From a virus (taxonomy: Duplodnaviria > Heunggongvirae > Uroviricota > Caudoviricetes), in IMG/VR virus record IMGVR_UViG_2706794688_000010: a stretch of DNA of 34,150 nt. The stretch is one strand, 5' to 3'. This document shows, in pieces, positions 1,741 through 34,027 of the stretch. A program made the position numbers and the translations under genes. The first letter of the stretch is position 1, and every line of letters starts with the position of its first letter. The notes under the pieces were generated by a model, which made no database searches, was not told the DNA's origin, and worked only from the letters and a program-made list of their open reading frames with translations.

Positions 1741-4700
1741 TTAACATTCCCCCATCACGTCGCATATTTAACAGATTGCCCTGCACCCGCTGATCAACCA
1801 TCCCCATAAGTGCTTTTATTGCCTGAGGGCCAATCTCTCCATTCTGGCCGTCATTTTGAATAGTGATTTGGTATACAGGGGCATAGGTAATATCTCCGCC
1901 TCCATTACCACTTTTACTATTAATAGCTCTGACACCAAGAGAACCATCGGAAGTTCGTGTTAATGGCATAATGGCTTCCGGTCCAGCCTCACCAAAAACA
2001 CCAGCCCCTTTTGCAAAAGCAAAAAATTGCGGGGAATCATAAATACCGTTCGAATACGTGCTCAATGACGGAGACTCATAAACACCGCCCTTTGCATTCG
2101 GAATAAATTTACTAATAGCACTCCCGATAGTTCCTAAAATCCCCCCAGAAGAACTGTTACTAATGCTGTCGAAAATCCCAGTAATTGAAGCCTTTAATGC
2201 TATTCGACTAAGATCCGAAATCACGGAAGTAGCGAAAGAACGAAAATTTGCCTTGCCTGTCGTGACAAAATCACCCAGCGCATCGGTCATCCCATCAAAC
2301 ATCTGAGTCGTGGTTGATTTTATCTGCTCACTGATATCCTTAGTGTCATCCAGCCAGTTATTGAATCCCTGGGAGGCACCACTAACCCAGTCTCCTGCCT
2401 GAATATCGAGCTGCTCGTTTTTCTGTCTGACAATTTCTTTTTCCCGTTCCAGAGCATCATTCAGAGCCTGCATTTTCTCTTGAAAAACATGATCTGACAT
2501 TCCACGGGATTTATCTGCATAGTCACGTTCAAGTTGCAGACGCTGATTGTTATATCCATGTTCAATCCGCAGTAATTCCTGCTGGCGTTGCTGATTTTTA
2601 TCGCCAACCCCATAACCAGCAATCTGAATATCATACCCCTGCTGACGATTATCAATCGAAGCCTGCAATGAATCACGCCATGCTGTTATTTCGGCGGATT
2701 CCTTGATTAGCCTGTTATTTTTTTCAATCGCAACATTTTTCTCCATCAACGTGGTTATTTCTTCCCGGTGTAAGAGAAGCGATTTCTGATCCTGGGTTAA
2801 TTTCGATGATGGTCGTGACTCTAGGTCGGCAATCCGCTGACGCCACTTAACCAGTTCCTGTTCAGAGGAACTTAATTTAACGGTCAACTCAGCTTGTGAA
2901 CTTAGTAACGCATTCTGTTGATTCAGATGATCAATCATTCGTTGGGCTGCATCATCAGAATAACCTTTCGCCTTTGGTTGCTTTGGATCTTTATAACGCT
3001 CATTTATTTGAGCGATAAGATTATTATATTCTTCCTTTGAATACTGATTCTTTAGCTTTTCCAGTTTTGCAAGTTCACTAGCTCTCTGCTGCTCCCGGGT
3101 CTGATATTGTTTTGAAAAGGCATCTGCTCTCTGTCTGAGTTCAATTCCTTCCTGTTGTCGCTTGTTGTAATCGTTTATTGATGAATTTAGTACGTCCTGA
3201 GCAATTTTTTCTGCTTGAAGTACGCCCAATTGCTGCTTTAATCGTGCCAGCCTTTTATTTTGAGCTCCGCCATCTCCAATGCCACCTAACCCGAAAACTC
3301 CGGGTCGGGTATTTTTTTCTATTTCATCAATTTGACGGAGAACATCTGAGATTTTTTGATCAAGGGAGGCCTCACGGCCAATATCCAGCATGGAATCCCA
3401 TGCCCATTTTGCGGAGTCTGCGACAGCTTTCCATGCAGTCTCAAGATAACCAAGATTTTCTTTAATCTGGTTGGTGCGCTGGATCATTGAGGATGAGTAT
3501 TCTTCTGTCGCAATGCGGGCGGCCTCCTGCTGGTTCCCTTCATCCTGTAGCGCCTTAATCTGGTTATAAGTCGCAAGTGTCAGAAAATGGTACTGATCAT
3601 TAAGTTTTGATATGGCACTGACAGGATCCTTTGCAATTTCATTGAAGTCATTAACCAGTTGTTCGGTTGATATTCCTGTTACTTCGCTCGTTTTTACTAT
3701 CGCTGTCGTCACTTGCTCCAGCGAACTGCTCGCTACCTTTCCCGAACGCACAAGCTGATTTAATACTGCCGCCGCAGCACCAGTTGTCGAATCAGCCGCA
3801 TTCCCGGCACGTTGAGCTATATCGCCCAATTGCCCGCTGGTTGTCCCCAACTGATTTCCGGTAAGAATAAGAGATTTATTAAATTCGTCCTGCTCCTGAG
3901 AGCCTTTATAGTAAGCCAGTCCTAAGACCCCAACGGCTGCTGCGGCCAGGGTAAAAGGATTAATTAATCCCAGCACATAAGAACCTACACCTTTGATCGC
4001 CGGGCCAATCCCACCGAACATATCTTTTAGCTGGCCGCCCTGCTGCATTAACACCATAAATGGCGACTGACCAGTGGACAACCCAACAACAATATCCGTC
4101 ATTTGTACAGGCAACATGCGCATAGCAAAAGCCGTTTGTTTTGCCGACATTCCGGTTTTGCTTAATTGTGATTGAGTAACCTCAAGCTCACTCCGCATAG
4201 CACGAAGTTTTCCAGAAAGCTCCTCATACATTTCAGGAGAAAGCATCCCCTTAGCTTTTGCTTCATTGAGCTGTTTCTGTTGTTCTACCAGACGATTAAA
4301 AGCAGTTCCGACAGGATCAAGTTGAGCAATCAGACGTTGCAAAGCAACAACCTGTTCATCATGCGCTTTTGCTGCTTCTCGCTCTGCCTGAGCCTCTCCG
4401 GTAAGCTCTCGCCGTGTTTCCTGTATTTTTCGGCTATAATTCTCAAACTGAGAACCATTTATTTTCCCGGATGCAAACGCAGCATTAAGTTCATCATGCT
4501 GTTGTTCAAGATTTCTTAGCGCCGCAGCCAGAGGGTCGATCTTGTCCAGCATTCTTTGAAAGGCCTGAGCCTGCGCTTCCTGCTGGGCGGCAGCAAGTTT
4601 TCCGGCCTTCTCGGCTTCTCTCTGCGCTTGCGCAACCCCGCTCAATTCCTCTGTGGTTTCATTAAGTTTACGGACAAGAAATTCATATTCTTCTTTATCA

Positions 4701-14632: not shown

Positions 14633-15698
14633 TCCTTACTCTGGCATCAACCACATTAATATTGATCGCCACAGGCTGGGGATGTTCATTATCTTCCACC
14701 GTTTCGATCTCTTTGCGCAGCTTCTGGTTTTCCATTCTGCGCCGTTCAATTTCCAGTTCCCGTAGCCGCTTATCTGCACATAAAGCCCCGCCAGCAGAAA
14801 ACAAACGCAACAATTCACGCCGGGCGGCAGCCTTATCCTCCAGCAGGATCTCAACGCCGAATTTTCCGAATTTTGCCCCTGCATATAATTGCCGCGCATC
14901 CCCATCAAGCAGAGTGGTATCAGCCATATAAAGCTGTCCCGTTCCCTCACCGCAGCACTTCGGGCAGTCCGGATTGGGTATGGCGTTATCAACAAAGCCG
15001 AGGCCTCCATATTCCGGTTCGGGTTTGCCATCTCTGGAAGCCTGCGCCGCTGCCTTGTCGAATTCTGCTATATCGCGCCACTGGTAGAGATGATTCTCGC
15101 CCCAGCAATAACGGCAGTTAACACGGCGAAATTGTGCAAGCTGATTGGGGTCGGCCAGGACAATAGCCATCAACTGACTCACTAGTAAATCCAGGTCTGC
15201 GGTATAGCGTTTCTGGTACTGATTGCGGAAGTAGCTGATAGCGCGAAAAACCCTGGCATTTCTAAGCATACGACTGGCGTTGCTGTTAGCTGTCGCACCT
15301 TGCCCCTCATAACCGGCTAGTCGGTACGCCTCTGTCGGCTTTTTACCCTGAGCAACAAGCATCGCAAACTTAGCCTGCTGGTCAGAAATGCCGAATTCAT
15401 CGGGACAGAACGAAAATTCCTCCGCGTCGCCCTCATTCAGGCCCGCATCGAATACTGGCTTTTTTTCCTGAGATTTTTCGTTCCGCTTTTGTGCAGTCTG
15501 CGCAGATTTTTTCTGCGCACTTTTTTGCGCAGTTTTGCACATTTCTGTCTGCGCATTTTTCGGAGTTTTTTTGATGTAACGACGGGCTGTTGCGTAATTC
15601 AGTCCCCTTGCTTCACACCATGCCACCGGAGATATACCGGAGCGGGTGTATTCAGCAATATACTCCTGCTGCAACGCCCCCCAGTCCGGTCTGCTCAT
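14604..15698 (-). CDS. Terminase small subunit (N-terminal HTH)
   Basis: 364 aa ORF immediately upstream of and overlapping the large terminase gene; basic N-terminal segment ...GLNYATARRYIKK... Confidence 0.65.
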   Translation of the reverse strand: MSRPDWGALQQEYIAEYTRSGISPVAWCEARGLNYATARRYIKKTPKNAQTEMCKTAQKSAQKKSAQTAQKRNEKSQEKKPVFDAGLNEGDAEEFSFCPDEFGISDQQAKFAMLVAQGKKPTEAYRLAGYEGQGATANSNASRMLRNARVFRAISYFRNQYQKRYTADLDLLVSQLMAIVLADPNQLAQFRRVNCRYCWGENHLYQWRDIAEFDKAAAQASRDGKPEPEYGGLGFVDNAIPNPDCPKCCGEGTGQLYMADTTLLDGDARQLYAGAKFGKFGVEILLEDKAAARRELLRLFSAGGALCADKRLRELEIERRRMENQKLRKEIETVEDNEHPQPVAININVVDARVRSDEDDLSDA

Positions 15699-17739: not shown

Positions 17740-19042
17740 TTAGGAGCGCCAAAAAAAACCTGAAAACAATATAATAACAGGATAAATTTCAAGGCGACCA
17801 AGAATCATAGCTATGCACATTAAATATTTTGCAATGTCATTAAGCACTCCGAATGACGATGCAGTAGCCCCAAAACCTAATCCCATATTATTAATACATG
17901 CAGCCACTGTTGCAAATGATGTAAGAAAATCATATCCCATACCATTTAACACCAGTATAAAAAACACCGTGAAGAGAGTATAAAGAAAAAAGAAACTCCA
18001 TACAGACCTCATTACACGATCTGTAACTATCTTCCCTCCTACATTTACACTCAACAACGCTCTGGGATGAGAAAGCTGATTTATCTCGTGTTTGCTTTGT
18101 TTGAAAAGTATAAGAAATCGAAGTGACTTAATTCCACCACAGGTTGAACCTATACATCCCCCAAAGAAACTTGACAACAGCAAAAACACTATCGTGTGCG
18201 TGGGCCAGTTTGCATAATCCTGCGTAGCTAAACCATTATCAGTGAGCATGGAGCTGGCAAGAAAAAACGAATGAATAAAACTTCCATGCAAGTCATACAT
18301 ACCTATATGCCAGACCTGGAAAGAGGTAACAATGATCACCCCTAAGGCTATTAACAGAAAGAAACGAAGTTCAATATCTCTGATTAAAGGTTTTATCGTT
18401 TTTCTGCTAATAACAATATACCAAAGAGTGAAGTTGAAAGCCGATAGCAGGGAAAAAGAACCAGCCACCAGCTCAACCAAATAGTTATTAAAATATCCGA
18501 TACTCTCNNNNNNNNNNNNNNNNNNNNNNNNNNNNNNNNNNNNNNNNNNNNNNNNNNNNNNNNNNNNNNNNNNNNNNNNNNNNNNNNNNNNNNNNNNNNN
18601 NAACAATAACTCCTAAACCACCTATAAAATTTAACTGTGACCGATAGTACAAATATGCCCGAGGTAATGAACTAACATCATCAATTACAGTTGCTCCTGT
18701 TGTTGTTATTCCAGAAACCCCTTCAAACAGAGCATCAATGAACGTTAAATTAAGTTCTGAGTCAATCCATAAAGGGAATGCACTAATAACAGAAAACAAA
18801 ATCCAAAACATTACAATTATAATAAACCCATCACGGGTACGTAATTGAATGCCAGATTTCTTAGTTGTATACCACGCTCCGCCACCAATGCAAAAAAATA
18901 TAACGAAAGTTATAAAGAAAACGAACAGGCTTTTTTCTTTATAAAACAATGCTACAACCATTGGTGGCAACATTGAAAGACTATAGAGCCAAACCAGGAA
19001 CCCACACATATGAGTAACAACTCTTACATGAGATGTATTCAT
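17740..19042 (-). CDS. trkG: Trk-type potassium uptake protein TrkG (interrupted by N-run 18508-18601)
   Basis: N-terminus MNTSHVRVVTHMCGFLVWLYSLSMLPPMVVALFYKEKSLF... and C-terminus ...ILGRLEIYPVIILFSGFFWRS match the Rac-prophage TrkG as I recall it; multi-pass membrane protein; AT-rich gene directly downstream of Rz as in Rac. Confidence 0.85.
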
Positions 19043-22196: not shown

Positions 22197-22646
22197 GGTC
22201 AATACAAAGGATGCTTCGTCTTTATTATAGTAATCTGAGGCGTCGGGTGTCTTGTATCAGACAACATATTGTCCCGCTAAACAGCGAATTACAAACCACC
22301 CTNNNNNNNNNNNNNNNNNNNNNNNNNNNNNNNNNNNNNNNNNNNNNNNNNNNNNNNNNNNNNNNNNNNNNNNNNNNNNNNNNNNNNNNNNNNNNNNNNN
22401 NNNNNNNNNNNNNNNNNNNNNNNNNNNNNNNNNNNNNNNNNNNNNNNNNNNNNNNNNNNNNNNNNNNNNNNNNNNNNNNNNNNNNNNNNNNNNNNNNNNN
22501 NNNNNNNNNNNNNNNNNNNNNNNNNNNNNNNNNNNNNNNNNNNNNNNNNNNNNNNNNNNNNNNNNNNNNNNNNNNNNNNNNNCAATCCGCCTCGCGATAC
22601 AGCTTTGCGAAGCATAGCAAAATTGAAGCAGTTTATACGTAAGAAA

Positions 22647-22984: not shown

Positions 22985-23234
22985 NNNNNNNNNNNNNNNN
23001 NNNNNNNNNNNNNNNNNNNNNNNNNNNNNNNNNNNNNNNNNNNNNNNNNNNNNNNNNNNNNNNNNNNNNNNNNNNNNNNNNNNNNNNNNNNNNNNNNNNN
23101 NNNNNNNNNNNNNNNNNNNNNNNNNNNNNNNNNNNNNNNNNNNNNNNNNNNNNNNNNNNNNNNNNNNNNNNNNNNNNNNNNNNNNNNNNNNNNNNNNNNN
23201 NNNNNNNNNNNNNNNNNNNNNNNNNNNNNNNNNN

Positions 23235-24078: not shown

Positions 24079-24881
24079 TTCTCAATCTCTCGATGGCGCA
24101 GCGCAGCAGATGCCAGTTGTTCAGGCTGACGAATAAAGTATAAATAAACTGGCTATGGTGTAAAGCCCCACATAGCATGAACAAACACTACATATCAAAT
24201 AGCTGGTACAAGGATAGAAATACGACACTTATTATTAAAANNNNNNNNNNNNNNNNNNNNNNNNNNNNNNNNNNNNNNNNNNNNNNNNNNNNNNNNNNNN
24301 NNNNNNNNNNNNNNNNNNNNNNNNNNNNNNNNNNNNNNNNNNNNNNNNNNNNNNNNNNNNNNNNNNNNNNNNNNNNNNNNNNNNNNNNNNNNNNNNNNNN
24401 NNNNNNNNNNNNNNNNNNNNNNNNNNNNNNNNNNNNNNNNNNNNNNNNNNNNNNNNNNNNNNNNNNNNNNNNNNNNNNNNNNNNNNNNNNNNNNNNNNNN
24501 NNNNNNNNNNACTCAAGTCATTAACATTTGATAAGATATATCTAAAAGGACGCCTTTACATTATTTATGCGTATATAATTTATTTATATACACAGTAAAG
24601 GTATCCTGGGAAAATATTTATCGTTAAAAAATACATCATAAATAATTAAGCTGAAATTTCAGAACACAACTAATACACACAATAAGGTTCAGTAACAGTA
24701 ATCTATGTGGACTACATCGAGATTTTTTGATTAAACTTTAATAACTTATTCCTAACACACAGAATGCATAAACTAAAAGTAAAACAAATAGTTATACGAA
24801 AAACAACCATATTTATTCTATCTTCTCCTCTAATCAACATATCAATTATGTGTTTCATAACAGCTTGACATAACCCTCCAA

Positions 24882-29272: not shown

Positions 29273-29338
29273 TTACTTCTCAATTCCTGGCTGGACGACA
29301 TTCGGACGCCAGCTCTCCCAGTTAAAATTCACCCATCG
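29273..29338 (-). pseudogene. 3' fragment of a second DnaC-like (YdaV-like) gene, remainder in N-run
   Basis: Encodes ...[21 protein letters not shown]; about 37 nt identical to the 3' end of ydaV at 31255-31300. Confidence 0.4.
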
Positions 29339-29588
29339 NNNNNNNNNNNNNNNNNNNNNNNNNNNNNNNNNNNNNNNNNNNNNNNNNNNNNNNNNNNNNN
29401 NNNNNNNNNNNNNNNNNNNNNNNNNNNNNNNNNNNNNNNNNNNNNNNNNNNNNNNNNNNNNNNNNNNNNNNNNNNNNNNNNNNNNNNNNNNNNNNNNNNN
29501 NNNNNNNNNNNNNNNNNNNNNNNNNNNNNNNNNNNNNNNNNNNNNNNNNNNNNNNNNNNNNNNNNNNNNNNNNNNNNNNNNNNNNNNN

Positions 29589-30233
29589 GATAAGAGGGCG
29601 TCCCTGAGATTTGCGGTGTAGATTGGTATCGCGCAGAGAATACACACAGCCACAATATTCCTGCTGATAGAATTTTTCGCGCTTGCTGATTTCAATCATA
29701 CGGGACGAGCCGCCCTGCTTGCGCCAGTTATAATCCCAGTACACCATGCCCGGATAATGCGCGACGGCTCGCCGCCCACAGTCGTTAACCTGCTGCATAT
29801 TTTTCCAGCGTGAAATGCCCAGTGAACTGCTGATCACACTGAAACCATTTTCAGCGGCGTACAGCGCTGTCCGCTCAAAACGCATGTCAAAACACATGGT
29901 GCAACGGATCCCTCGTTCGGGCTCCCATTCCATTCCTTTGGCTCGTTCAAACCAGTTGTCTGTGTCGTAATCAGCATCAATAAACGGCACGCCGTGTTGT
30001 TCAGCAAAGCGAATATTCTCATCCTTACGAATTAAATACTCTTTCTGAGGATGAATGTTCGGGTTGTAGAAAAAGATGGTGTAGTCGATTCCCGAGGCCT
30101 GAAGCGCCTCCATCACCTCACCGGAACATGGAGCACAGCAAGAGTGCAGTAGTAGTTTGTTTGCCCCGTTTGGGAGCTCCAATTTGGGCCGTTTGAAATC
30201 AGCAACTGTCATAAATATGTTTATTGGGGTCAT
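29589..30233 (-). CDS. QueH-like (DUF208) epoxyqueuosine reductase-like protein, C-terminus in N-run
   Basis: N-terminal [17 protein letters not shown] plus downstream Cys motifs ([17 protein letters not shown]) fit my recollection of the DUF208/QueH Fe-S family; weak RBS. Confidence 0.5.
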
Positions 30234-31231: not shown

Positions 31232-31978
31232 CTACTTAACAACCCTCGAATGGCTAACATTCGGACGCCAGCTCTCCCAGTTAAAATTCACCCAGCGCCC
31301 GCCGTTCATGACCATGCGATCCATCACCCGCTCGCCGAGCAATGTTTTCATCACCTCATAGTTCAGGTTTGTCAGCATCCCCACGCTGCGCATCGACGCT
31401 GTCCGGCGATCAACAATCTGGTGCAGCACCACCTGCTCGTTTTTCGTCTCGCGCTGAATGCCAATTTCATCAAGAACCAGCAGATCCACTTCGCATAGTT
31501 CCCGCAAAAATTTTTCGCCTGACTGCCCATCGTCATAGCTGGCGTGCAGGGCACTCATAACATCAGCCACGGTAACCACAATCACTGTCTGACCGTCTTT
31601 CAGCAGGCGATTCCCGATAGCTGCCGCTAAGTGGTTCTTCCCGGTACCAGGTTTTCCGCTGAACGCAAAATTTGTACACCCGGTCATCAGTTCATCAGCG
31701 ATGGATTTCGCCTGACTCAACGCGTATCGCTGCGCTTCGTTCTGCACCTGGTAATTCGAAAACGAGCATTTGCGGTGCAATGGCTGGATGCCAGAGCGAT
31801 TCAGAATTTTTTCCACCCGCAACTGACGATTCTGACGGTTGATCTCCTCACAACGTTTCTGGCCTTCGGAAAGTTGCCACTCGCGCCACTCCGCTACCGT
31901 CTTGAATGGCGCGGTTACATGTGACGGGGCCAGTCTGCGGATACGTTCAAGAACGTCGCCTGTCGCAATATTTTTCAT
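31232..31978 (-). CDS. ydaV: DnaC-like replication helicase loader (IstB-like ATPase)
   Basis: Walker A FSGKPGTGKNHLAAAIG and Walker B LLVLDEIG; follows ydaU as in Rac. Confidence 0.8.
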   Translation of the reverse strand: MKNIATGDVLERIRRLAPSHVTAPFKTVAEWREWQLSEGQKRCEEINRQNRQLRVEKILNRSGIQPLHRKCSFSNYQVQNEAQRYALSQAKSIADELMTGCTNFAFSGKPGTGKNHLAAAIGNRLLKDGQTVIVVTVADVMSALHASYDDGQSGEKFLRELCEVDLLVLDEIGIQRETKNEQVVLHQIVDRRTASMRSVGMLTNLNYEVMKTLLGERVMDRMVMNGGRWVNFNWESWRPNVSHSRVVK

Positions 31979-31984
31979 GGTCAG

Positions 31985-32842
31985 TTACCCCCTGAAGCCT
32001 GGCGGGATCGCACTATCCGGTAACGAGACGGTGTTAACCTGTCGGAGTAACGTCTCAGGTCGAACACCTTTCGGCGCGAACAAGCCCTGGTATTCATTGG
32101 CGATGCTGTGTCGAATCACCTGCTCAGGTGAAAAACCCTGCTGGCGGAATTTTTCCAGCTCCCGTATCGCCCCGTTAGCGCCCTGCTCCGTTCGAATCGG
32201 TTTTCGCAATGCCTGGCGAAATTCAACCCACTCACGCCAAAGCGAGACAGAAATCCAGTTCGGCAAAGCAATATCCAGAGGGTCAAACTTTTTGACACCT
32301 CGATTCCCCCGGGGGGGATTTAGGGGGGGATCTGTTTTTAGATCTTTATCTGTATCTTTATTAGTTGCCTTTGTGTTGACATCATGTTCAAACACCACTT
32401 CAACATCTGTTTGAACACCTGTTAAATTTCTCTCTTGTTTTGTTTGAACATCTGCTTCCTTTCTGCTTCTTCTGGCCTGAACAGATGCTTTTCCTGCGGC
32501 TGATTTTTTGGTTAATTTTTCCCTGACTGATGCCAGATCTTCCTCAATCCGAAGATGCACCCATTCCTCGCCGTTATCGCAAAAAAACTCCTGCAAGGAT
32601 GGTTCAACATCAGCCCATCGCTCGTTAGTCAGACGGGCAATTTTTGCCAGCCTGTTTTTAGGTATTGGCTTTCCTGTTTGCCAGTAATTGAACATCAGCA
32701 ACAAATACGCACCATGCTCCTCTGCTGACAAATGCATGGTGTCAGCCAGGTAATCAGCTATGTACAGTTGCATGTATGGTAATGCGGCCATAATTGCCCC
32801 GTATGATGCTGCCCGGTGGCTTAGAATAAGCACAAACAGCAT
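31985..32842 (-). CDS. ydaU: Replication initiator-like protein (DUF1376, YdaU-like)
   Basis: 285 aa ORF as in Rac ydaU; alternative start MAALPYMQLYIADYL at 32791; contains an internal ori-like repeat cluster in a linker-coding region. Confidence 0.65.
   Translation of the reverse strand: MLFVLILSHRAASYGAIMAALPYMQLYIADYLADTMHLSAEEHGAYLLLMFNYWQTGKPIPKNRLAKIARLTNERWADVEPSLQEFFCDNGEEWVHLRIEEDLASVREKLTKKSAAGKASVQARRSRKEADVQTKQERNLTGVQTDVEVVFEHDVNTKATNKDTDKDLKTDPPLNPPRGNRGVKKFDPLDIALPNWISVSLWREWVEFRQALRKPIRTEQGANGAIRELEKFRQQGFSPEQVIRHSIANEYQGLFAPKGVRPETLLRQVNTVSLPDSAIPPGFRG
32281..32455. repeat. Candidate replication origin: G-tract palindrome, GATC-containing AT-rich repeats and GTTCAAAC/GTTTGAAC iterons inside ydaU
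   Basis: GGTCAAACTTTTTTGACACC, CCCCCGGGGGGG, GATCTGTTTTTAGATCTTTATCTGTATCTTTATT, then ATGTTCAAACACC (32384-32396), CTGTTTGAACACC (32408-32420), TTGTTTGAACATC (32440-32452). Confidence 0.45.
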
Positions 32843-32854
32843 GGAAACTTTTGC

Positions 32855-33277
32855 TTAATGAACAATGACAGAATCGTCGGAAGACCCGCCGCCGCTGAAA
32901 TGCGCTTTCCGGTAAACGGCTTGGACTGCATCATCATGCGCATCAATTGCCGTACTTAACGCTTCCTGCGCCGCCAGTAATGCACGGCGTTCCAGGGTAT
33001 CGAAGATGCAGAGTCGGTGACGCAGCTCGCGCGGAAGGATTGCCAGAATTGCTGGGATCAGCTTCTGAATTTTTTCTCTTTGCGTTTTCGTTTCACCTTT
33101 CAACCAACGGTGATAGATATTCTGCTGATTATTCCAGTCCTTGCCTGGTACCAGGGGCAATTCGCCGCCCCCCTGGCGCAGATATTCTTCAGTAATGGCA
33201 TTGGCTACCCATGCCTGCCCTTTTTCGGCTGCCAGGGCTAACAACACTGACTCGATGTGCTCATGCTTGATTTTCAT
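32855..33277 (-). CDS. ydaT: YdaT-like protein (Rac ydaT family)
   Basis: 140 aa, same length as Rac YdaT; ATGA overlap with the upstream ydaS-like gene; divergent from the repressor gene. Confidence 0.65.
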   Translation of the reverse strand: MKIKHEHIESVLLALAAEKGQAWVANAITEEYLRQGGGELPLVPGKDWNNQQNIYHRWLKGETKTQREKIQKLIPAILAILPRELRHRLCIFDTLERRALLAAQEALSTAIDAHDDAVQAVYRKAHFSGGGSSDDSVIVH

Positions 33278-33528
33278 GAATCAACTCCCATCAGCTTTTT
33301 CGTAGTAGTTTTATTTCTGCCAATAGTTAAAATTACATCAGCAGAAAATAATCCGTTTGATGCATGAGCGATTTTTTCAGCGTAATTTGTTTCGCCGGTA
33401 TATTCTGTGCGAGGCAATTTTCCGTTATCCATCCATTTGTAGATTGCTCTTTGGCTGACACCACAAACGTCGGCCACAACAGAAACGCGAACAGTTTTGA
33501 TTACATCTTCAAGTGTTTTCTGGTTCAT
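33274..33528 (-). CDS. ydaS: Cro/YdaS-like HTH protein
   Basis: Start MNQKTLEDVIK... at 33528 with GAGGGTGAT RBS (the longer ORF to 33600 would run into the racR start); HTH ...VADVCGVSQRAIYKWMDNGKLP... Confidence 0.6.
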   Translation of the reverse strand: MNQKTLEDVIKTVRVSVVADVCGVSQRAIYKWMDNGKLPRTEYTGETNYAEKIAHASNGLFSADVILTIGRNKTTTKKLMGVDS

Positions 33529-33589: not shown

Positions 33590-34027
33590 GTGAATATCAT
33601 TGAACTTATGGTTCATGAAGATAAAGCGCGTAAAGAGTTCGCCAGTAGGCTTGCGCTAGCCTGTGAAAACGCTGGTTATGAACAACATGGAAGGCAGGCA
33701 GAAATTGCCCGTCGAATGAAATTAACACCAAAAGCGGTTAGCAAATGGTTTAATGGCGAAACAATTCCTCGCCGAGAGAAATTAAGGGAATTAGCAACAC
33801 TCATTGGAACAACACCAACCTATCTTTTGGGAGAGGATACAGAAGAAAGTGGACAGGTACGTTTCTATCAGGAGTTAAATCCAAGACAAAAAATCATCAT
33901 TGACCTTCTGGACGAGCTCCCTGACAGTGAGACAGATGAACTTTTAAAAACTCTTGAGGAGAAAAAACAGAAGTACAATGCAATTTACGAAGAGCTAGCA
34001 CGAAAGAAAAAACAAAAAGCCTCTTAA
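33590..34027 (+). CDS. racR: XRE-family HTH repressor (RacR-like)
   Basis: GTG at 33590 or ATG at 33608; HTH GRQAEIARRMKLTPKAVSKWFNGETIP; divergent from ydaS-ydaT as in Rac; Lys/Glu-rich C-terminus. Confidence 0.7.
   Translation: MNIIELMVHEDKARKEFASRLALACENAGYEQHGRQAEIARRMKLTPKAVSKWFNGETIPRREKLRELATLIGTTPTYLLGEDTEESGQVRFYQELNPRQKIIIDLLDELPDSETDELLKTLEEKKQKYNAIYEELARKKKQKAS

Follow-up and report, generated by a model that had tools for sequence, protein, structure and literature searches.

A probable lambda-like origin of replication within the initiator gene ydaU of a Rac-type prophage

Introduction

The Rac prophage of Escherichia coli carries an origin of replication, oriJ, which has been known functionally since the late 1970s and whose mapping is reportedly found in Diaz 1979 and Potrykus 2000. 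Rac is described as having a replication origin, oriJ, that is active (PMC3945230; Potrykus 2000 as cited in PMC11014345). An origin situated inside the O gene is a textbook design, whose iteron is an imperfect inverted repeat (PMC7466680), and motifs of the C-terminal part of DnaT have been noted in O-like proteins by Brezellec et al. (PMC5509034). The present analysis deals with a viral stretch of 34,150 nucleotides (IMG/VR record IMGVR_UViG_2706794688_000010, Caudoviricetes; the whole stretch is hereafter called the window), the 3' end of which corresponds to the region for immunity and replication in a Rac-type lambdoid prophage, and more precisely with a segment of about 180 base pairs (bp) (32306-32489) in the linker-coding middle of the gene ydaU, which encodes the initiator. 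Judging from its sequence and, above all, from comparison with relatives, this segment is in good likelihood the lambda-ori-like replication origin of the Rac-type prophage, and most probably oriJ.

Iteron cluster in the middle of ydaU

A sequence-only reading of the window had proposed an origin-like iteron cluster at 32281-32455 by analogy with lambda ori in gene O, on the basis of a palindrome, a G/C tract, AT-rich repeats containing GATC and three spaced copies of inverse-complementary 8-mers. All these features do lie within this interval, which corresponds to residues 130-188 of YdaU. Indeed, GTTCAAAC is present once (32386-32393) and GTTTGAAC twice (32409-32416 and 32442-32449), the G/C tract is found at 32306-32329, the AT-rich repeats include two GATC sites, and the region encodes, as had been stated, a low-complexity linker located after the DUF1376 domain. 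The extent was underestimated, as weaker copies of the repeat had been missed and the element runs to about 32489; the segment 32306-32489 encodes residues 118-179 of the 285 residues of YdaU.

Considering both strands, the 10-mer TGTTCAAACA has three exact copies in the 34-kb window (32385-32394, 32408-32417 and 32441-32450), all within 66 bp (32385-32450) and one of them inverted. When 10-mers of any sequence were scanned for three or more non-overlapping copies per 100 bp, this cluster was the only one in the 34 kb; a comparable 10-mer cluster was obtained in 0 of 200 Markov-1 random sequences, and a 9-mer cluster in 1% of them. The same scan detected no second cluster of repeats of at least 9 nucleotides anywhere in the window. 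As regards 8-mers, the only other clusters with at least three copies per 100 bp are located at 15497-15555 and 24561-24645, with three copies each of TCTGCGCA and ATAAATAA.

The iteron consensus is ACAGATGTTCAAACA, with a core, TGTT-CA-AACA, that is dyad-symmetric within each unit. The array comprises three perfect and three weaker copies between 32372 and 32489 (Table 1) and is not as regular as that of lambda: i0, i1 and i2, the first three in direct orientation, begin exactly 33 bp apart, the other spacing being about 11-16 bp. The copies i4 and i2 form a pair, GTTCAAAC-N15-GTTTGAAC, that is kept across Enterobacterales, and i2 is also kept in strain DG341-1 (locus L083) and in phage Rac-SA53. 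The least conserved of the perfect copies is i1, with ...CAAAAA in some alleles and a degenerate form in Rac-SA53.

Two further iteron-like sites are present in the DUF1376-coding part of ydaU, at 32600-32614 (GCTGATGTTGAACCA) and 32685-32699 (GCTGATGTTCAATTA). In relatives from Pseudomonas, Kluyvera and Methylococcaceae, three to four copies of ACGxxCGTTGAA, mostly 11 bp apart, occupy positions +165 to +210 of the open reading frame, that is, approximately the place of 32600-32614.

Table 1. Coordinates of the putative origin parts and of the surrounding genes in the window
Feature	Position	Strand	Description
Iteron i0, weaker upstream copy	32476-32489	-	AGCATCTGTTCAGG; starts 33 bp before i1
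Iteron i1, perfect	32441-32455	-	GCAGATGTTCAAACA; read A-D-V-Q-T
Iteron i2, perfect	32408-32422	-	ACAGGTGTTCAAACA; read T-G-V-Q-T; starts 33 bp after i1
Iteron i3, weaker	32396-32410	-	ACAGATGTTGAAGTG
Iteron i4, inverted, perfect	32380-32394	+	CATCATGTTCAAACA; read in the gene V-V-F-E-H
i5, weaker iteron-like copy	32372-32386	-	CATGATGTCAACACA
AT-rich segment, putative unwinding element	32329-32376	.	ACACAAAGGCAACTAATAAAGATACAGATAAAGATCTAAAAACAGATC; GC minimum; two GATC
Twin C-tract with C/G palindrome	32306-32329	.	CCCCCCCTAAATCCCCCCCGGGGG in gene orientation
Palindrome GTCAAA-ctt-TTTGAC	32282-32296	.	encodes V-K-K-F-D; 3-nucleotide centre; probably incidental
ydaU, initiator gene	31985-32842	-	285 residues; N-terminal DUF1376 winged-helix module (modelled), putative origin-holding linker, C-terminal DnaT-like module
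ydaV, DnaC/IstB-type helicase loader gene	31232-31978	-	putative partner of the YdaU C-module
ydaT, CII-like	32855-33277	-	
cro/ydaS-like gene	between the cI-like repressor gene and ydaT	-	
cI-like repressor gene	33590-34027	+	
DUF977 ren-like gene	beyond ydaV	-	

AT-rich segment, twin C-tract and palindromes

Along the gene, the repeats are followed by the AT-rich segment, then by the twin C-tract with its C7G5 palindrome, and finally by the GTCAAA..TTTGAC palindrome. The two GATC sites of the AT-rich segment (32329-32332 and 32341-32344) lie in a run of (A/C)A(A/C)GAT hexamers. Of all 30-bp duplexes in the coding stretch from ydaV to ydaT, the least stable falls in this segment, ranking in the top 0.3% of the window, and the segment displays DNA-level conservation across Enterobacterales. 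On the plus strand, it contains two 13-mer-like units, GATCTGTTTTTAG and, directly after it, GATCTTTATCTGT.

The twin C-tract consists of CCCCCGGGGGGG (32306-32317) followed by ATTTAGGGGGGG, which ends at 32329, and is predicted to form a hairpin in single-stranded DNA. A recurrent element of the form C5-7 TAWAW C5-7 comes after the AT-rich part in many initiator lineages, often with a G-run (GC palindrome) next to it; besides the window, it was seen at loci L254, L255, L257, L090, L092, L093, L112, L132, L160 and L173. This element looks conserved as DNA, since it is read in two frames (CTA AAT in YdaU, CCT AAA TCC in Klebsiella GZ7) and since its proline codons are always CCC or CCT. It could mark the boundary of the unwound region, or serve as a helicase-loading or priming signal. 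Where the C-module has been replaced, a GC palindrome still follows the AT-rich run, namely CCCTTCCGGAAGGG (14 bp) in the IMG/VR variants L080 and L081 and ACGCGCGCGT in strain DG341-1.

The GTCAAA..TTTGAC palindrome of the sequence-only reading does exist (GGTCAAACTTTTTGACACC, 32281-32299), with five T where six had been transcribed. Close alleles differ in its left arm (V to G or I) and relatives lack the palindrome; as it is not conserved, it looks incidental and was rejected as a functional part. A scan of the element for promoters and terminators returned nothing notable. A YdaT/CII-type operator was also discarded, the sole perfect TTGATTN6AATCAA of the window being located outside the element, at 33267-33284. 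This site, TTGATTTTCATGAATCAA, is a perfect inverted repeat spanning the ydaS stop and the ydaT start, and it fits what we take to be the site of the YdaT protein of CP-933P.

Constraint on the DNA rather than on the peptide

Low-complexity, repetitive linkers and recombination joints between modules can in principle generate repeats devoid of any DNA-level function. In favour of such by-products, the region encodes a linker of this kind, microsatellite-like (GATACA)n runs occur at the equivalent place in relatives, and mosaic joints map here. Several observations nevertheless make this explanation extremely improbable: (i) the inverted copy i4 is translated VVFEH, a peptide different from those of the direct copies (DVQT and GVQT); (ii) a single DNA motif falls in different reading frames from one genus to another, GTT CAA ACA (VQT) in E. 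coli and xGT TCA ACx (CST or RST) for GTTCAAC in Citrobacter and Enterobacter, and even within one gene, the three perfect GACCGTTCAACG copies of Rahnella, the first two of which are 11 bp apart, being read RST, VQR and RST; (iii) the commonest gap between successive copies (n=100, from 30 loci) is 11 bp (25/100), which is no codon multiple, and only 41/100 gaps are multiples of 3; (iv) the type of repeat co-varies with the N-terminal DNA-binding module; and (v) genes with a Phage_rep_O (lambda O-type) N-domain have iteron arrays of their own exactly at this place. The inverted copy, the differing frames and the 11-bp mode exclude a peptide repeat, an interpretation that both frame and orientation contradict, and place the constraint on the DNA, as the sequence-only reading had thought plausible. 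Polymorphism among 37 close alleles is too sparse for any site-specific constraint to be visible in it.

Domain organization of YdaU and exchange of modules

Modelling of the DUF1376 domain of YdaU (residues 22-104) gives a winged helix; when the DUF1376 profile was searched by sequence against the PDB, nothing significant came up. The DnaT-like C-module begins at about residue 173, and the last 76 residues (210-285) align with the C-terminal domain of DnaT, including the shared ending VNTVSxPDSxIPPGFRG. The next gene, ydaV, has Pfam matches to IstB_IS21 and Bac_DnaA and belongs to PHROG 50 ('DnaC-like helicase loader'). The initiator gene is thus followed by a helicase-loader gene of the type that matches the C-terminal domain of YdaU, in an operon of replication genes located downstream of cro- and cII-like genes. 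Some relatives of YdaU are named 'phage replication initiator YdaU family protein' by NCBI.

Megablast comparisons with E. coli genomes placed DNA joints at nucleotides 491-506 of the gene (32337-32352), inside the AT-rich part. Two kinds of exchange were found. On the one hand, strain DG341-1 and phage Rac-SA53 have retained the N-module, the iterons and the AT-rich run, and carry another C-module with a Pfam DnaT domain, followed by a lambda-P-type loader in place of ydaV. On the other hand, loci L084-L087 have retained the C-module (86-97% DNA identity over the matched part) and ydaV, together with an unrelated N-module that has no Pfam hit and five GTTAC-type repeats at the equivalent place. 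These swaps indicate that the repeat travels with the N-module and the loader with the C-module, a pairing that is the logic of lambdoid O/P modules. The analogy drawn beforehand with lambda ori in gene O thus agrees with the order of the parts, with their position and with this twofold co-variation.

The C-module of YdaU is shared by the O initiators of Gifsy-1, mEpX1, Klebsiella GZ7, phiES15 and Morganella IME1369_01, and by the O-like initiators of Pasteurella Pmp13 and Bordetella PHB09; the Phage_rep_O N-domain was confirmed with Pfam for Gifsy-1 and mEpX1. Each of them has its own iteron array at the position equivalent to the ydaU repeats, for instance ATCCCCGAAAAGGGGGA-type units in seven copies for Gifsy-1 and TGTCTCGAAGTTAGAGACA units in four to five copies for mEpX1. 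A similar AT-rich run (CACAAAAGACA...AAAGATCTAA) and then a twin C-tract come after the array in all of these initiator genes but that of PHB09. The AT-rich and C-tract DNA of ydaU is similar to that of genes whose N-domain is Phage_rep_O, among them the O genes of Gifsy-1 and mEpX1.

Searches of viral contigs with single proteins or with the C-module alignment returned almost only near-identical E. coli prophages, which are informative on allele variation and not on co-variation. Likewise, a first homologue search gave only proteins about 100% identical, and the usable protein alignment came from a profile search. Among plasmids, no plasmid-borne relative of the segment was obtained, the three hits of the search looking like chromosomal or megaplasmid records.

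Some alleles carry insertions. In E. coli 2009C_3996 (L082, approximately 1991-3300), an IS3-family element interrupts ydaU at about nucleotides 491-495 of the gene, in the AT-rich segment, leaving two pseudogene pieces. In L080 and L081 (399 residues), an in-frame segment of about 126 residues comes after ...DLKTD, at about nucleotides 517-890 of the gene (2017-2390 of the locus); it is 114 residues longer than the PPLNPPRGNRGV stretch that it replaces, and shows a PD-(D/E)XK-like 'GRIDIVV...GIELD' pattern without a Pfam hit.

Repeats in DUF1376 initiators at large

The presence of repeats in homologous initiator genes had been set as a test beforehand. A scan of one genome per species yielded 80 DUF1376 loci, of which 77 were usable, a cluster being defined as at least four copies of a 9-mer, with up to one mismatch and microsatellites excluded, in the 320-bp block after the domain. 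Such repeats are indeed present and enriched: 36% of the 77 loci have a cluster in the post-domain block versus 4.4% for the other blocks of the same loci, an 8-fold enrichment, and GTT(C/G)AAC-type motifs are 5-7-fold enriched in the post-domain block.

Iteron sequence and type of N-terminal domain vary together, DUF1376 subgroups carrying either GTTSAAC-type or AACCCAG-type motifs. Close relatives have GTT(C/G)AAC-type palindromic units: in Alsobacter, for example, six copies of CGTTCAACG follow one another every 11 bp, and a Pseudomonadales genome has four copies. A more distant group, the N-module of which shows 27-38% identity, has up to seven AAACCCAG units, and the AACCCAG-type motif is confined to this group.

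These data raise the broader and still doubtful idea that DUF1376/YdaU initiators form a widespread class of intragenic origins undescribed at the sequence level, and that lambda-type origins paired with DnaC-type loaders carry the twin C-tract as an additional conserved DNA element. The proposed class would span Enterobacterales, Pseudomonas, Burkholderiales and alpha-proteobacteria, with short palindromic iterons (CGTT-S-AACG or AAACCCAG) and 11-bp phasing.

In three loci, from Kosakonia, Phytobacter and Leclercia (L119, L121 and L151), an additional middle segment ('...YFI...IGYSKNPW.RLSEL...') comes after the DUF1376 N-part, and its DNA contains four TAGCTACG-type repeats. A Pfam DnaT domain comes next in L119, the only one of the three that was scanned. 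These loci may represent another origin or initiator variant.

Relationship to oriJ

From its identity and its neighbours, the ydaU element sits in the Rac replication region of the E. coli K-12 type. Indeed, ydaU shows 100% identity with its E. coli DH5alpha counterpart and 99.9% with the MG1655/BW25113 gene, and it was found in 1506 of 5426 complete E. coli genomes. In DH5alpha, it is flanked on one side by a cI-like repressor gene, a ydaS-like regulator gene and ydaT, then kilR and recET, and on the other side by ydaV, then DUF1627 and DUF977 genes. A literature search for a sequence map of oriJ, or for a link between ydaU and an origin, returned passing mentions only, the original mapping studies being outside its reach.

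Several points weigh against the identification of the segment as the Rac origin. There are only three perfect iterons, i1 varies among alleles, and the weaker copies depend on judgement; moreover, a low-complexity linker by itself raises the likelihood of repeats. DnaA boxes (TTWTNCACA) are absent from ydaU and ydaV, the three found in the window (15533, 28454 and 34090) matching chance expectation, so that a DnaA-dependent origin of the oriC type would not fit. Published 'oriJ' primers (De Paepe 2014; PMC3945230 supplement) amplify 31568-31722, inside ydaV and about 600 bp from the cluster. Finally, Rac has been called 'replication-defective' (PMC11014345).

The position of this amplicon is one indication that the repeats might be real binding sites, of YdaU or of another phage regulator, involved in autoregulation, transcription control or exclusion, with the Rac origin lying elsewhere, for instance in ydaV. 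The additional iteron-like sites at 32600-32614 and 32685-32699 point in the same direction, as do the replication inhibition phenotypes caused by plasmid-borne lambda ori fragments (PMC3349717). However, the amplicon encodes the Walker A region of YdaV and shows on reading no evident repeats or AT-rich stretch, the window offers no other cluster of 9-mers or longer, the YdaT-type site is not in the cluster, and both the adjoining AT-rich minimum and the Phage_rep_O-type anatomy fit an origin. Such a role for the repeats, with an origin elsewhere, is very unlikely.

The segment could also be an origin by descent that is inactive here, a relic retained only through lying in coding sequence. Rac is a defective prophage, with the description quoted above, and some alleles show a frameshifted C-tract, an AT-rich part interrupted by IS3 or an i1 that is degenerate. 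Yet ydaU and ydaV are both intact in this prophage, ydaU is identical or nearly so to the K-12 gene, and the i2/i4 inverted pair and the AT-rich part are conserved across genera. Strain K-12 is, moreover, presumably the one that yielded the oriJ plasmids. Together with the report of a replication origin, oriJ, described as active (PMC3945230), this makes a relic unlikely, and an origin that is functional in the Rac-type prophage is the reading that we retain.

Proposed mode of action and significance

From the anatomy of the segment and the homologies of its gene products, we infer the following scheme. Once the racR-like repressor is lifted, transcription of ydaS-ydaT-ydaU-ydaV would cross the origin and produce YdaU; this passage of transcription over the origin from a cro-side promoter would be as in lambda. 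Dimers of the N-terminal winged-helix (DUF1376) domain of YdaU would attach, along one face of the helix, to the dyad-symmetric iterons, and the resulting nucleoprotein complex could destabilise the adjoining AT-rich, GATC-containing segment, the GC-rich twin C-tract and its palindrome bounding the unwound region. The DnaT-like C-module would then recruit onto the opened DNA the host DnaB bound to the DnaC-like loader YdaV. As a lead only, Dam methylation or SeqA could modulate firing through the two GATC sites and the 13-mer-like units.

Both the origin-inside-initiator design and the oriJ of Rac were already known, and the finding, although well supported, is unsurprising; what may be new are the iteron families specific to DUF1376 and the twin C-tract with its independence of frame. 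The segment provides a base-level candidate for oriJ, which the accessible literature does not place in sequence, and suggests a concrete role for DUF1376, a domain of 'unknown function', as a putative origin-binding winged helix with recognisable cognate sites. This could help to annotate the replication modules of prophages, to predict replicon specificity as well as incompatibility between Rac-like prophages, and to design minireplicons. If functional, the twin C-tract would be an extra part in the textbook lambda-type origin.

Further features of the window

Apart from the genes of Table 1, a gene coding for QueH (epoxyqueuosine reductase) is located at 29322-30233 on the minus strand, with the DUF1627 gene on one side and the replication-side genes on the other. 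The window has six runs of N (611-860, 18508-18601, 22303-22582, 22985-23234, 24241-24510 and 29339-29588), one of which masks part of this gene.

Comparison with known systems

With oriC of E. coli, the likeness is limited to the 13-mers (GATCTnTTnTTTT): the unit GATCTGTTTTTAG at 32329-32341 agrees with the oriC 13-mer GATCTCTTATTAG at 11 of 13 positions, but DnaA boxes are absent near the ydaU element and the likeness may reflect only AT-richness and GATC. RepA_N-type plasmid initiators (pSK41 RepA) and DnaD resemble YdaU in fold and design only, without detectable sequence similarity, and their hosts and C-terminal partners differ.

As for the DnaT-DnaC pair of E. coli, the C-terminus of YdaU is similar to the C-terminal domain of DnaT and ydaV is DnaC-like. 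The order ydaU-ydaV furthermore mirrors that of dnaT-dnaC. DnaT differs in having neither a DUF1376 domain nor an origin, and in acting at PriA-bound forks instead of iterons.

A close parallel in design is lambda ori in gene O, where the origin likewise lies midway along the initiator gene, flanked by the parts for an N-terminal DNA-binding module and for a C-terminal module that recruits the loader. Dyad-symmetric iterons, an AT-rich region and an inverted repeat follow each other along the direction of transcription in both (PMC7466680; PMC5509034). In both, too, the N-domain travels with the iterons, the C-domain matches the downstream loader, and the operon is downstream of cro/cII-like genes. 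The N-domain is Phage_rep_O in lambda O and DUF1376 in YdaU, and the loader is P in lambda and the DnaC/IstB-type YdaV here. The YdaU iterons are shorter than those of lambda ori (10-15 bp, core TGTTCAAACA), have fewer perfect copies and are irregularly spaced (33, 12 and 16 bp), with one inverted; unlike in lambda, the AT-rich part of ydaU has GATC sites and is then followed by the twin C-tract.

Finally, the O genes of Gifsy-1, mEpX1/N7, GZ7 and phiES15, which are paired with DnaC-type loaders, differ from ydaU by the family of their N-domain and by their iterons (ATCCCCGAAAAGGGGGA, TGTCTCGAAGTTAGAGACA, TTACCCGAATCAGGTAA and TTAGCCAAAACAGCTAA), the O-type arrays used as controls being direct and regular, with units recurring every 22 bp (Gifsy-1) or 24 bp (mEpX1), unlike that of ydaU. 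They share with it a homologous C-module (38-49% identity), the order of initiator then loader and, at the DNA level, the AT-rich run and the twin C-tract.

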